A DNA stretch of 22,250 nt from Candidatus Micrarchaeota archaeon. Lineage in GTDB: Archaea; Iainarchaeota; Iainarchaeia; JAADDC01. The number at the start of each line of letters is the position of its first letter. Within the stretch, counting starts at the first letter, position 1. This document shows positions 2,442 through 10,155 of the stretch, piece by piece. The stretch is from assembly GCA_027046625.1 (NCBI GenBank), contig JALTXX010000011.1, positions 29,246 through 51,495 of the forward strand, written 5' to 3'. The notes under the pieces were generated by a model. It was not told the origin of the DNA. It worked only from the letters and a program-made list of their open reading frames with translations, and made no database searches. A program made the position numbers and the translations under genes.

Positions 2442-3647
2442 CTATTCCCCTAAAGAGTTAATCAGCATTTTGATATAGTCTTCCTTGTTTGGAGCATCTA
2501 TTGAGTGGAGCAGTATCTCTTTGTCACTTTCACCCCTCACAGTACCCCTCACACTAACGATGGAACCCAACAGTTTCTCCTTAAAGGTGTCCGCCTCTTC
2601 AGGGGTGGAAAAAAGCCCCTTCAGTGGGTTCCCTACTCCAAACACCTTTATATTTCCGCTCCCATCAGATAACACAAAGGAGAGCACAGGCACCACGTCT
2701 ACGTGCTTAGACCCGCAGTTATTACAAACCCATTCTCCTTCTTCATAAGAAGCTTCACCTCCGCAATCTAAACACTTTGCGACAAAGAACTTCTTATTTA
2801 CAATCCTTACCACAACTCCTATAACTTCTACTCTTTCTCCTCCCCTTACATCTTCCACAGGTTTGAACAAATACTCTTTTTTCTCTACTAAAATATTACC
2901 TTCTTCCCCTACATAGAGGGTAGGACCCCTTTCCCCTTCCTCTACATAACCACCCTCTACCACCACCTCATCTCCCACAGAAAGATCCATCTCCTTCCCC
3001 CATACCACCACCCGTATCCTACCGCTATCGTCTTCTCCTATAAAGGATGTATAGGGCTTTCCTTCGCTAGTTTTTCCCGTTCCCAGCGTTGTATAAACCC
3101 TTAAGCGTGAAAACACTCCTTTCATCCCCTCCTTCATATCAGAAACCTTAGTATATTCAGGGTTTTCCACCAATATCCTGCTTGTAATACCCGTTACAAG
3201 GGAAAGTCTCCCGTTATATTCCTCAACTCTTCCGTTTATCACCTCCACTACACTTCCGGGCTTTATAACACCTTTTGAAACGAGTTCCGCATCTCTGTTC
3301 CATAAAACTACCCTTATACTACCACTCTCATCCTCCAAAAGGAAAGATGCATACTTACCCTTCCTTCCCTCCCTTTCATACTCTCTCATCGGGAATATCC
3401 TGCTAACCCTCCCCCTAACCGTAATTCCATCCATACCTGGCTTTAGTTCGCCTATCTCTATTCTTGGGTTCATTACTCTTTCCATCTCTATGTCTAAACC
3501 CAGATCTTTTGCTATCAGATACAGTGCTCCAACCTCTGTTAGTAGAGATGCGTACTCTTTCAATTTTTTCTCCAGCAATACTTCTAGCTCTGCCCTGCTT
3601 ATGCCAGTCTTTTCCTGAATAAGCTGCTTGAGTTCCTCCGCTTCCAT
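2442..3647 (-). CDS. rpa: Replication protein A (multi-OB-fold ssDNA-binding protein with Zn finger)
   Basis: Start placed at ATG 3647 (MEAEELKQ), since the ORF-track extension overlaps truA. N-terminal helical domain, repeated OB motifs (LEDESGSIRVVLW, GEDDSGRIRVVVW, LSDGSGNIKV) and a CxxC...CxxC zinc finger (CLDC/CNNC). Confidence 0.9.
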   Translation of the reverse strand: MEAEELKQLIQEKTGISRAELEVLLEKKLKEYASLLTEVGALYLIAKDLGLDIEMERVMNPRIEIGELKPGMDGITVRGRVSRIFPMREYEREGRKGKYASFLLEDESGSIRVVLWNRDAELVSKGVIKPGSVVEVINGRVEEYNGRLSLVTGITSRILVENPEYTKVSDMKEGMKGVFSRLRVYTTLGTGKTSEGKPYTSFIGEDDSGRIRVVVWGKEMDLSVGDEVVVEGGYVEEGERGPTLYVGEEGNILVEKKEYLFKPVEDVRGGERVEVIGVVVRIVNKKFFVAKCLDCGGEASYEEGEWVCNNCGSKHVDVVPVLSFVLSDGSGNIKVFGVGNPLKGLFSTPEEADTFKEKLLGSIVSVRGTVRGESDKEILLHSIDAPNKEDYIKMLINSLGE

Positions 3648-4380
3648 GTTAAAATGTTTCCTCCGAAGGGTTTTTGTGTACCTCTGCAGGGTGGGGTATA
3701 TAGGTTGGAACTTCAGAGGGACAAACATACAAAGAGACGTAAGGACTGTTGAAGGGGAGATGGAACGTGTATTGGGGGGAAAGGTAAGGTTTCTTAGTAG
3801 AACAGACGCAGGCGTTTCAGCTATGAACAACTACGCTCTTTGTTGGTGCAGAGAGAGCCCCTTTAAGATAAACGAGTTAGATGATATATGGATTACGGGA
3901 TTTTCAAAGATTGAAAGGAAGCCTAAGGTGTTCTGGCGATGGTATAGATACTATTTTCCCAAGGAGATAGAAATAAGCTCCCAATCTATAGAGCCGTTCA
4001 TAGGAAAAAAGGATTTTCGCTATCTCTCCATTCCCGAGGGAAGAAATACCACAAGGGAAGTATTGGATATACGAGTATTTAGAGGTATGGGATTCACCGT
4101 TTTCGATGTGTTTGGTAGATCCTTCCTGAGGCAGATGGTTAGAAGACTGGTAAATGCCATTATATTGGTAGAGAAGGGAATCAATCCGGATGATATCTTT
4201 TCTGGAAAGTTAAGGGTTCCTCCCCTTCCCCCAGAAGGATTGGTGCTCATGGATATGAAGCTAGACGTATCTGTTCCTGTGATGGAGGAAAAGAGAGTGC
4301 TGGTAAAGGAGCGGCTGAAAAAGCTTAGAGAGGAATTTCTCATTAAAAGGTTGGTACTTTCCAATGATTGGGTCATTTAA
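3646..4380 (+). CDS. truA: tRNA pseudouridine(38-40) synthase
   Basis: YIGWNFRG...Q...TVEGE, catalytic SRTDAGVSA, SFLRQMVRRLV and PPEGLVL. Start is either ATG 3646 or GTG 3676. Confidence 0.92.
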   Translation: MLKCFLRRVFVYLCRVGYIGWNFRGTNIQRDVRTVEGEMERVLGGKVRFLSRTDAGVSAMNNYALCWCRESPFKINELDDIWITGFSKIERKPKVFWRWYRYYFPKEIEISSQSIEPFIGKKDFRYLSIPEGRNTTREVLDIRVFRGMGFTVFDVFGRSFLRQMVRRLVNAIILVEKGINPDDIFSGKLRVPPLPPEGLVLMDMKLDVSVPVMEEKRVLVKERLKKLREEFLIKRLVLSNDWVI

Positions 4381-4404
4381 GCCTTGCTATCCTCCTATAA
4401 CATC

Positions 4405-5835
4405 ATGGTAGATGTTTCTCAGTTAAGGGAAATAAGAAGGGGGGTGTGGGAGCTCAGCCCAAGGGGAGATATGAGAGTACCGTTGAGAATATACGGTACG
4501 AGGAGGATCATAGAGGAACTTGAGGAGACTGCGGTCCAACAGGGGATAAATGTAGCCTCCATGCCCGGTATTGTAGACCATGCCATTATGCTGCCTGATG
4601 CCCACCAAGGGTACGGATTTCCCATAGGTGGAGTGGCTGCCTTCGATACAGAGGACGGTCTAATCTCTCCGGGAGGTGTAGGCTTTGACATCAACTGTGG
4701 TGTTAGAGTTGTTCTAACTTCTCTTCAAGAGAAGGATGTGAGACCTAAGCTAAAGGAGCTGGTGGAGGTACTATTCCATAACGTTCCCTCCGGGGTGGGA
4801 AGTGAAGGGAAGATAAGGCTCTCAAAAGGACAGTTAGAGGAGGTAATGACTGAGGGTGTAAACTGGGCTATCTCCATGGGCTACGGATGGGAGGAGGATA
4901 GGGATAGAATCGAAGAGAATGGAAGGATGGAGGGGGCAGATCCAGACAAAGTGTCAGACGCTGCTAGGAAGAGGGGTGCTCCACAATTGGGAACCCTTGG
5001 TTCTGGGAACCATTTCCTTGAAATCCAGAGGGTGGATAAGATATTTTCTCCGGACATTGCAGATAGGTTCGGTCTCTTTAAGGATCAAATAGTAGTAATG
5101 ATACATACAGGGAGCAGAGGGTTTGGACACCAAATTGCCTCAGACTATTTGAAGGTTATGGAAAAGGTTATGAAAAAGTATAACATTGTTTTGCCAGACA
5201 AACAGCTTGCATCCGTTCCTTTCAATACAAGAGAGGCTCAAGACTACTTTTCCGCTATGAAAGCCGCCGTAAACTTTGCATTCACAAACAGGCAGATGAT
5301 CACCCATTGGGTAAGGGAGAGCTTCTCAAAGGTGTTTAAGGAAGATCCTGAAGATTTGGGAATGCACATACTATATGATGTAGCTCATAACATTGCAAAA
5401 CTCGAGGTTCACAAGGGAAGAGAGCTAATTGTACATAGAAAGGGTGCTACAAGATCCTTCCCAGCAGGGAGAAAGGAGATACCGGAGATTTACAGGGATG
5501 TAGGTCAACCCGTTCTCATACCCGGCAGCATGGGAACAGCATCCTATATATTGGTGGGGGCGCCCACAGCAATGGAGGAAACCTTTGGAAGCACATGTCA
5601 CGGCGCTGGAAGGGTACTCTCTAGAACGGCAGCAAAAAGAAGGTGGAGCGGAAAAGAAATAGAGCAGATGCTAGAATCGGAGGGCAGAGCGGTGCGAGCT
5701 GTGTCCTACAGGGTACTGGCAGAGGAGGCACCCGAGGCATACAAGGATGTGGACGAGGTGATTCGATCTGTGGATATTGCAGGGCTGTCAAAACCGGTGT
5801 CGAGGAACGTTCCTATAGGGGTAGTAAAGGGCTAA
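4405..5835 (+). CDS. rtcB: tRNA-splicing RNA ligase RtcB
   Basis: Motifs PDAHQGYGFPIGGV, DINCGV, GNHFLE, HTGSRG, HNIAK, HRKGATR, STCHGAGR and EEAPEAYK. Start placed at ATG 4405. No intein. Confidence 0.97.
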   Translation: MVDVSQLREIRRGVWELSPRGDMRVPLRIYGTRRIIEELEETAVQQGINVASMPGIVDHAIMLPDAHQGYGFPIGGVAAFDTEDGLISPGGVGFDINCGVRVVLTSLQEKDVRPKLKELVEVLFHNVPSGVGSEGKIRLSKGQLEEVMTEGVNWAISMGYGWEEDRDRIEENGRMEGADPDKVSDAARKRGAPQLGTLGSGNHFLEIQRVDKIFSPDIADRFGLFKDQIVVMIHTGSRGFGHQIASDYLKVMEKVMKKYNIVLPDKQLASVPFNTREAQDYFSAMKAAVNFAFTNRQMITHWVRESFSKVFKEDPEDLGMHILYDVAHNIAKLEVHKGRELIVHRKGATRSFPAGRKEIPEIYRDVGQPVLIPGSMGTASYILVGAPTAMEETFGSTCHGAGRVLSRTAAKRRWSGKEIEQMLESEGRAVRAVSYRVLAEEAPEAYKDVDEVIRSVDIAGLSKPVSRNVPIGVVKG

Positions 5836-9681: not shown

Positions 9682-9688
9682 TTAAAAA
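9682..9688 (-). promoter_or_regulatory. Putative TATA box (TTTTTAA) for the DUF2341 gene
   Basis: Ends 25 nt before ATG 9657. Confidence 0.45.
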
Positions 9689-9707: not shown

Positions 9708-9798
9708 TGGGGCCGCGGGGATTTGAACCCCGGACCTACGGTTGTCCCAGAGCCGGTCCTATAAGACCGTCGCTCTGACCAGGCTGAGCTACGGCCCC
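9708..9798 (-). tRNA. tRNA-Ile(UAU) with a 16-nt canonical 37/38 intron (intron 9744-9759)
   Basis: Minus strand folds as GGGGCCG-TA-GCTC-AGCCTGGTCA-GAGC-G-ACGGT-CT-TAT-A-[GGACCGGCTCTGGGAC]-A-ACCGT-AGGTC-CGGGG-TTCAAAT-CCCCG-CGGCCCC-A. All four stems are fully Watson-Crick. Bulge-helix-bulge: UAG bulge, CUUA/UGGG helix, ACA bulge. CCA not encoded. Anticodon at 9761-9763. Confidence 0.95.
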
Positions 9799-9823
9799 TC
9801 GCTAAACTTAATCGGGGTGCATG

Positions 9824-9832
9824 CTTAAAAAA
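9824..9832. promoter_or_regulatory. Putative shared bidirectional TATA element for the tRNA (minus) and nac (plus)
   Basis: CTTAAAAAA reads TTTTTTAAG on the minus strand, ending 26 nt before tRNA G1. On the plus strand TTAAAAAA lies at -28..-21 of ATG 9853. Confidence 0.5.
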
Positions 9833-9852
9833 CATTGATATGATGTTTCTGT

Positions 9853-10155
9853 ATGAACATCGAGCGGCTTATGAAACAAATGGGAGTAAAAATGAAAAGA
9901 TTAGATGTAAAGGAAGTTGTGTTTCTCTTTGAGGACGGTACAAGATGGATTTTCAGGAATCCGGAGGTGGTAGAAACAGAGGCCATGGGAAACAAGGCAT
10001 TTCAGGTTATTGGAAGTCCGGAGGAAGACATCAACGAGGAAGATATAAAGATTATAATGGAAAAAACGGGAGTGGATAGAGAAAGAGCCTTAGAAGCTCT
10101 CAAAAAGTCTAAAGGAGACATTGCAGAGGCCATACTCATGCTGGAATCTCAATAA
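9853..10155 (+). CDS. nac: Archaeal nascent polypeptide-associated complex protein
   Basis: LMKQMGVKM..LDVKEVV NAC domain plus C-terminal UBA EEDIKIIMEKTGVDRERALEALKKSKGDIAEAIL. Confidence 0.95.
   Translation: MNIERLMKQMGVKMKRLDVKEVVFLFEDGTRWIFRNPEVVETEAMGNKAFQVIGSPEEDINEEDIKIIMEKTGVDRERALEALKKSKGDIAEAILMLESQ

Follow-up and report, generated by a model that had tools for sequence, protein, structure and literature searches.

A tRNA-Ile(UAU) gene with a 16-nt intron very probably serves as the AUA decoder of a DPANN archaeon in which no TiaS was found

Introduction

The AUN codon box, in which AUA stands for isoleucine and AUG for methionine, is a classic decoding problem, and nearly all bacteria and archaea that have been studied solve it by means of a modified C34. 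Archaea that use a tRNA-Ile with a UAU anticodon have been described in small numbers. The available text of one survey of 167 archaeal genomes limits tRNA-Ile(UAU) to two of them, Korarchaeum cryptofilum and Nanoarchaeum equitans (PMC6000648), and the relevant portion of the tRNAscan-SE 2.0 preprint, where this tRNA is called Ile3(UAU), names the same two archaea among 217 genomes (10.1101/614032). According to the sections of Fujishima et al. (2011; PMC3239211) that treat these tRNAs, ARMAN-2, ARMAN-4, and ARMAN-5 have tRNA-Ile(UAU) and are without tRNA-Ile(CAU) and TiaS; the same sections describe an ARMAN-2 pre-tRNA-Ile(UAU) with a 25-nt intron at 37/38 that was cleaved in vitro by the endonuclease of that organism. 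UAU decoding without TiaS is therefore already published for ARMAN, Nanoarchaeum, and Korarchaeum, and the locus described here is not a new solution to the problem. We found no searchable literature that treats agmatidine together with DPANN, and among the matches listed for TiaS in connection with DPANN, Micrarchaeota, Iainarchaeota, or Diapherotrites there was none beyond the 2011 ARMAN report.

Here we describe a tRNA-Ile(UAU) gene from a tiny vent archaeon that belongs to the DPANN. The window, by which we mean the whole 22,250-base stretch of DNA that was analyzed, comes from a metagenome-type draft genome of 652,019 bases in 18 contigs (94.21% complete, 0.51% contaminated), hereafter the source genome.

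Results

The window contains a single Rfam match, a tRNA on the minus strand (RF00005, 9798-9708, 63.7 bits against a gathering score of 29, E of 5.9e-12) that covers the full model from position 1 to 71 and carries a 17-position insertion in the anticodon loop. ARAGORN found the same 91 nt, leaving the anticodon unnamed under the label "tRNA-???". The features of the locus are as follows.

9708..9798, minus strand: pre-tRNA-Ile(UAU) gene, 91 nt (Rfam RF00005, ARAGORN, and sequence)
9760..9798, minus strand: exon 1, tRNA positions 1-37 (direct reading, verified by script)
9761..9763, minus strand: anticodon UAU, with U34 at 9763 (script; kept in 13 orthologues)
9744..9759, minus strand: 16-nt intron at the canonical 37/38 position, with a bulge-helix-bulge (BHB) core (Rfam, orthologue comparison, and script)
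9708..9743, minus strand: exon 2, tRNA positions 38-73 (verified by script)
9823..9832, minus strand: A/T-rich box resembling a TATA element, 25-34 nt upstream of the mature 5' end (direct reading)
9684..9688, minus strand: T5 run, 20 nt beyond the tRNA 3' end (direct reading)

The acceptor stem (GGGGCCG/CGGCCCC) is followed by a discriminator A and then TCC, CCA not being encoded; the D and T arms are standard, the variable loop is AGGUC, and the two strands of the anticodon stem (ACGGU/ACCGU) are separated by 23 nt. To leave a 7-nt anticodon loop, 16 contiguous nucleotides need to be cut out of these 23, which allows eight possible cuts, and by direct reading U33 and a purine at position 37 are left only by cuts that keep UAU as positions 34-36. 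The predicted splice at 37/38 gives the loop CUUAUA/A (the slash marks the junction) and hence the anticodon UAU. The full-model RF00005 match and direct reading thus confirm what the initial annotation had proposed, a complete tRNA whose 37/38 splice yields UAU, and a sequence script agrees with it that U34 corresponds to an A at 9763 on the plus strand. The A/T-rich box and the T5 run, judged by position and composition, are a candidate archaeal promoter and a candidate oligo-T terminator, respectively; a T-rich box lies at a similar upstream distance in 4 of the 7 sister-genus orthologue loci shown.

The predicted splice sites lie two nucleotides into each of two 3-nt bulges (U36-A37-i1 and i15-i16-A38), which are on opposite strands and on either side of a 4-bp central helix (C32-G, U33-G, U34-G, and A35-U). 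The outer intron helix, h', has 2 bp in the source genus versus 6 bp in the sister genus and 3-5 bp in a third genus, so that the earlier description of a "proper BHB" stands for the core and is weak for h'. The unconstrained minimum free energy (MFE) fold of the pre-tRNA (-48.3 kcal/mol, z of -3.95) is not the cloverleaf, because the 5' part of the intron pairs with one strand of each of two stems, the 3' strand in the case of the D stem and the 5' strand in that of the anticodon stem; on reading the aligned sequences, this competing intron/D-stem pairing is not kept in the sister genus.

A BLAST search with the 91 nt against 41 genomes recovered full-length orthologues in three of the five other genomes of the same genus (95-100% identity), in seven of eight sister-genus genomes (the eighth copy is interrupted by a contig end), and in both genomes of a second family in the order. 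CUUAUA/A and both 3-nt bulges are kept in all 13 full-length sequences, which span three genera with introns of 16 nt (source genus), 36-37 nt (sister genus), and 20 nt (third genus). All four pairs of the central helix are present in the source and third genera and three of four in the seven sister-genus genomes, where A35 faces G; across from U33 and U34 the intron base alternates between G and A among the orthologues with pairing retained, and the anticodon stem covaries (A27-U43 to U27-A43), with a different stem in the third genus. Across two genera the exons are identical or near-identical while the introns diverge. For a splice site whose exon side is invariant, these alignments give all the support that conservation can give.

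Apart from one base, the 16-nt intron is the same as the first 16 nt of the 36-37-nt intron of the sister genus. From this comparison, the short intron seems to derive from the longer form by loss of about 20 nt at the 3' end, after which the BHB looks to have been re-formed from nucleotides that sit in the inner hairpin of the longer intron.

The initial annotation had singled out base 9763 for checking, since the anticodon depends on it. Contigs from a vent-metagenome run span 9708-10150 without a difference, although this run is possibly the source sample itself and was available as contigs, which hide rare variants; the only variants listed within the tRNA in the same run, at 9747 and 9759, are both intronic and keep pairing. 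Were the T at tRNA position 34 an assembly or sequencing error, the true gene would be a tRNA-Ile2(CAU), and the provenance of the window, a metagenome-type draft in 18 contigs whose sole matching run may be its own source sample in contig form, speaks for caution. The same UAU, however, is common to 13 orthologues from other, independent assemblies, and we therefore regard such an error at 9763 as ruled out for all practical purposes. Further, the 5' half of tRNA(UAU) is present in at least 111 of 151 class genomes, the variants listed inside the tRNA are intronic with none at 9763, and TiaS, which the CAU version would require, was not found.

We next turn to the tRNA complement as a whole. 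There are 47 Rfam tRNA matches in the source genome, with anticodons assigned by ARAGORN and a script, and they represent 46 distinct species, the full archaeal set (24+7+10+5): 24 for the eight four-codon boxes, 7 for the pyrimidine-ending pairs, 10 for the purine-ending pairs, and five others, namely, Trp, Ile(GAU), initiator Met, elongator Met, and tRNA-Ile(UAU), which fills the slot held by Ile2(CAU) in other archaea. No third, Ile2-type CAU tRNA is among the 47 matches, the CAU anticodon being confined to initiator and elongator tRNA-Met. The initiator is recognized by A1-U72 and by GGG/CCC in the anticodon stem. Identical copies of it lie at C10:15241-15315, at a contig end, and at C14:5-79, at a contig start; downstream of the two, the sequence is shared for about 20 nt before it diverges, which is why they may be two genes or a strain-variant assembly break. 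The elongator tRNA-Met (C8:6210-6377, minus strand) has a 94-nt intron in the anticodon loop, and an intron-bearing elongator tRNA-Met is also found in two distant members of the class, G016 and G019. A second "tRNA-Ile(tat)" called by ARAGORN at C16:78757-79511 involves a 661-nt intron and has no Rfam support, and we reject it as a false call.

Searches of the source genome (94.21% complete) with the TiaS_FLD and TiaS_TCKD profiles (PF08489 and PF22641) gave no match at an E of 10 or below, while all four archaeal control genomes were positive. A tblastn search with two TiaS proteins from relatives in the class (those of G016 and G019, 464 and 467 aa, with four TiaS domains each) likewise revealed no TiaS-like frame in the source genome, the best E being 0.51. 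With no TiaS domain, no TiaS-like frame, and no third CAU tRNA, the earlier suggestion that TiaS has been lost alongside UAU decoding is supported.

The distribution of the two systems was surveyed in a class sample of 151 genomes and a phylum set of 215, every one of which is labelled as the same class or closer. TiaS_FLD scores above the cut-off were confined to two genomes (G016 and G019) in the class sample of 151 and likewise to 2 in the phylum set of 215, where a third hit, at 19 bits, fell below it. An exact pattern for the 5' half of tRNA(UAU), made up of the D arm, 6 nt, and CTTATA, was found in 111 of the 151 genomes of the class, a lower bound on the occurrence of the tRNA, and in 43 of the 55 with a completeness of 90% or more, and the reversed control pattern gave 0 hits; 38 of the 151 genomes have neither TiaS nor the 5'-half pattern. 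When a 3'-half pattern was applied to five pattern-negative genomes, two proved to have an intronless tRNA-Ile(UAU) and three gave no call. BLAST matches to the 5' half in the pattern-negative genomes G018, G020, G035, and G036 were discarded as Lys or Met tRNAs. Among one UAU tRNA from each of 20 class genomes (19 families), an intron is present in 4 and the other 16 read as intronless, 11 of them by a script result of "intron 0," 4 by a 7-nt "intron" that we judged to be a parsing artefact of imperfect stems, and 1 (G041) by eye. Four further intronless tRNA-Ile(UAU) examples were seen in the class.

The two TiaS-positive genomes, for which 36 (G016) and 38 (G019) Rfam tRNA hits were retrieved, do not have the UAU pattern. 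G016 has three CAU tRNAs, namely, an initiator type, an elongator type with an intron, and a third whose acceptor strand reads GGGCCUA; the two CAU tRNAs recovered from G019 are an elongator type and one with the GGGCCUA strand, which is also the 5' acceptor strand of its own tRNA-Ile(GAU). TiaS and an Ile-like CAU tRNA, the components of the TiaS/agmatidine system, are thus present in G016 and G019 and were not found in the source genome. Because the UAU tRNA was not found in these two relatives, the two systems appear to be mutually exclusive in the phylum, which with two TiaS-positive genomes is a pattern and not a statistic; mutual exclusion is what the TiaS-loss logic of the initial annotation predicts. 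An attempt to count Ile2 tRNAs with a CAU 5'-half pattern was uninformative, with matches in 40 of 151 genomes and never two in one genome, and the Ile-like CAU tRNAs of G016 and G019, whose D arm is a variant one, escaped it.

These surveys bear on whether TiaS and a tRNA-Ile2(CAU) might lie in the unassembled 6% of the genome, leaving the UAU tRNA as a redundant extra decoder. Completeness is 94.21%, and the initiator tRNA sits at two contig ends, so tRNA regions do break this assembly. We nevertheless consider this reading highly improbable: none of the 14 family genomes yielded a TiaS_FLD match, no more than 2 of the 215 phylum genomes exceed its cut-off, the 46 tRNA species already make up a complete set, and the UAU tRNA was not found in either of the TiaS-positive relatives.

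The codon served by this tRNA is in heavy use. In the 449 open reading frames (ORFs) of at least 200 codons in the source genome, ATA accounts for 7137 of 13290 Ile codons (54%; 41.4 per 1000 codons), making it the commonest Ile codon, and ATG is used 3586 times (21 per 1000). The earlier remark that ATA is common in the window was correct, with 135 of 273 Ile codons across its 11 ORFs. In the FttA/aCPSF1 protein of the window, compared with 23 distant Methanobacteriales orthologues that are mutually non-independent, the 30 ATA codons align with Ile in 56% of cases, Leu in 11%, and Met in 7%, and the ATT codons align with Ile in 53%. The source genome encodes an isoleucyl-tRNA synthetase (IleRS) at C3:67420-69888 (913.9 bits). 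This gene is not a neighbor of the UAU tRNA, which is located on contig C11, and at the loci L018 and L020 no long frame begins immediately beyond the tRNA.

The overall similarity of the tRNA does not establish its amino acid identity. Against other tRNAs of the genome, the spliced form shows 85% identity with tRNA-Phe, 84% with tRNA-Ile(GAU), 81% with tRNA-Trp, and 79% with elongator tRNA-Met, and with tRNA-Phe as close as tRNA-Ile(GAU) we set similarity aside as proof; the assignment to Ile therefore rests on the anticodon, the complete-set argument, and the codon alignment. The UAU tRNA agrees with tRNA-Ile(GAU) in its D arm and variable loop. The tRNA-Trp gene (C4:47024-47155, minus strand), which has a 59-nt intron, shares an identical acceptor stem and T arm with the UAU tRNA.

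In some mitochondria AUA specifies methionine, and one may ask whether the UAU tRNA carries some amino acid different from Ile, as it would if AUA had been reassigned to Met. Its similarity does not separate Ile from Phe or Trp tRNAs, and the sharing of its acceptor stem and T arm with the tRNA-Trp of the genome would fit noncognate charging. We find such charging very hard to credit, however, since ATA aligns with Ile as often as ATT does (56% versus 53%) and with Met at 7% (in one protein), since the resulting 41 Met per 1000 codons, added to the 21 per 1000 from ATG, would make Met implausibly abundant, and since the D arm and variable loop are those of tRNA-Ile(GAU).

The enzymes expected for the splicing step are both encoded. 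The source genome has a single EndA gene, whose 167-aa product has N-terminal and catalytic C domains and is of alpha-subunit size, and no second EndA-like frame was detected at an E of 1 or below. The ligase gene lies in the same window as the tRNA, and no conserved synteny links the two.

4384..5835, plus strand: RtcB tRNA-splicing ligase gene (Pfam RtcB, 598 bits)

Set against a working gene is the view that the locus is a decaying or unspliceable pseudogene and that AUA is read in some other way, for which one could cite the outer BHB helix of 2 bp and an MFE fold that sequesters the anticodon stem. This we judge most unlikely, given an RF00005 score of 63.7 bits over the full model, exons that are identical or near-identical across two genera whose introns have diverged, the presence of both EndA and RtcB, and the fact that no other tRNA of the genome can pair with AUA, its commonest Ile codon.

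Our preferred reading is that the locus is very probably a functional, intron-containing tRNA-Ile(UAU) that is charged by IleRS, reads AUA, and replaces tRNA-Ile2(CAU) together with TiaS and agmatidine. Under this model the gene would be transcribed as an intron-containing precursor, the single alpha-type endonuclease would cleave the BHB at 37/38, and RtcB would join the two exons. We infer that the mature tRNA would then be charged by IleRS and would read AUA through a direct U34-A pair, standing in for the pair formed by tRNA-Ile2(CAU) and TiaS/agmatidine. The gene itself, its splice geometry, its conservation, the lack of a detectable TiaS or Ile2-type CAU tRNA in the source genome, and the occurrence of ATA at Ile positions are direct or computed observations.

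For keeping U34 from reading AUG, the initial annotation had suggested an unusual modification, an unmodified U34, or a ribosomal adaptation, options that the modification genes can only help to narrow. Modifications of the xm5U34 type need Elp3. Elp3 (PF16199 and TIGR01211) was not found in the source genome, and TIGR01211 exceeded its cut-off in 0 of 14 family genomes (G004 gave a weak hit, E of 1.4e-7) versus 133 of 151 class genomes; xm5U34 on tRNA-Ile(UAU) is therefore unlikely in this family. By extension, xm5U-type wobble modifications may be absent from all U34 tRNAs of the source family. A broader rule that UAU lineages lack Elp3 was rejected: of the 151 class genomes, 133 have Elp3, the majority of them together with the UAU tRNA, and Elp3 loss is therefore family-specific and not tied to UAU.

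Other candidate modification enzymes are encoded in the source genome, including two PP-loop tRNA thiolase-like proteins of the TtuA/NcsA family (270 and 339 aa), both of which score far below the NCBIfam equivalog cut-offs, and a single TruA/Pus1-family pseudouridine synthase, whose gene ends 3 nt before rtcB.

C16:67816-68319 and C9:1263-1676: TtuA/NcsA-family genes, with U34, T54, or C32 as candidate targets
3628-4380, plus strand: TruA/Pus1-family pseudouridine synthase gene, the one such gene in the genome

The genes truA and rtcB are adjacent in all three source-genus loci, and RtcB is present at none of the five sister-genus loci with full flanks; since the adjacency holds within the genus only, we dropped it as a hint of intron-linked pseudouridylation.

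As described in the available part of Mandal et al. (PMC3895270), cnm5U is present in haloarchaeal mutants of tRNA-Ile that have U34, and these bind AUA more than AUG and AUG more than AUU; since the mutants bind AUG too, the fidelity problem exists. For the source organism, the state of U34 and any limit on AUG misreading are matters of inference. Without Elp3, U34 of tRNA-Ile(UAU) would have no xm5 or cnm5 group of the kind with which the haloarchaeal mutants bound AUG, and AUA might be told from AUG by an unmodified, 2-thiolated, or pseudouridylated U34 acting with a co-adapted tRNA body and ribosome, a tentative proposal against which we would set somewhat the greater weight. If it is true, the organism would offer an archaeal, thermophilic counterpart to the Mycoplasma mobile system, in a genome where AUA is the commonest Ile codon.

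Discussion

In this study, we characterized a tRNA-Ile(UAU) gene of a DPANN archaeon and surveyed its relatives, and the results indicate that what has been regarded as an exceptional solution is standard across a whole DPANN phylum, where it appears to exclude TiaS. The initial annotation had called this tRNA rare, which is apt for the cultured archaea covered by published surveys (2 of 167 genomes in the available text of PMC6000648) but does not hold in its own lineage, in which UAU is usual and TiaS exceptional. There is a practical consequence for annotation, in that, in genomes of this kind, a tRNA that ARAGORN leaves "undetermined" can prove to be the essential decoder of AUA. Further, the source family, with no TiaS and no Elp3 found in it and with heavy use of AUA, is a natural setting in which to ask how U34 avoids AUG.

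The likeness to ARMAN is extensive. As far as the relevant sections of the ARMAN report go (PMC3239211), ARMAN-2 (Ca. Micrarchaeum acidiphilum), ARMAN-4, and ARMAN-5 share with the source genome a DPANN affiliation, a UAU tRNA, and the lack of tRNA-Ile(CAU) and TiaS, and the ARMAN-2 gene, like ours, has its intron at 37/38 in a BHB motif. The two differ in that the ARMAN-2 intron is 25 nt long with a strict hBHBh' structure, whereas that of the source gene is 16 nt with a 2-bp outer helix, and in that the ARMAN-2 endonuclease is a three-unit epsilon2 enzyme, whereas the source genome encodes one short alpha-type EndA of 167 aa (PMC3239211).

The eukaryotic tRNA-Ile(UAU) is also intron-bearing, and the source genome encodes one TruA/Pus1-family synthase. 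In eukaryotes, pseudouridine 34 of this tRNA is formed by Pus1 in an intron-dependent manner. The presence of pseudouridine at position 34 of the eukaryotic tRNA is noted in the available text of PMC3895270; it is a eukaryotic feature, whereas the source tRNA is known from its gene. Since 16 of the 20 class UAU tRNAs read as intronless, an intron-dependent modification step cannot be general in the class.

In both Nanoarchaeum equitans and Korarchaeum cryptofilum, too, UAU replaces Ile2(CAU), and the Korarchaeum gene is likewise intron-bearing, according to the passages on these organisms in PMC6000648 and 10.1101/614032. In those texts they stand as isolated cases, whereas here the trait extends across a phylum represented by 215 species representatives. 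Mycoplasma mobile provides the bacterial parallel, with no TilS/TiaS-type enzyme and a UAU anticodon that reads AUA (PMC3575796 and PMC3895270, in the parts that concern it). Its tRNA differs in having no intron, and an unmodified U34 and low misreading of AUG have been demonstrated there (PMC3575796 and PMC3895270). By analogy, the system of the source organism may work like that of M. mobile if its U34 is unmodified.
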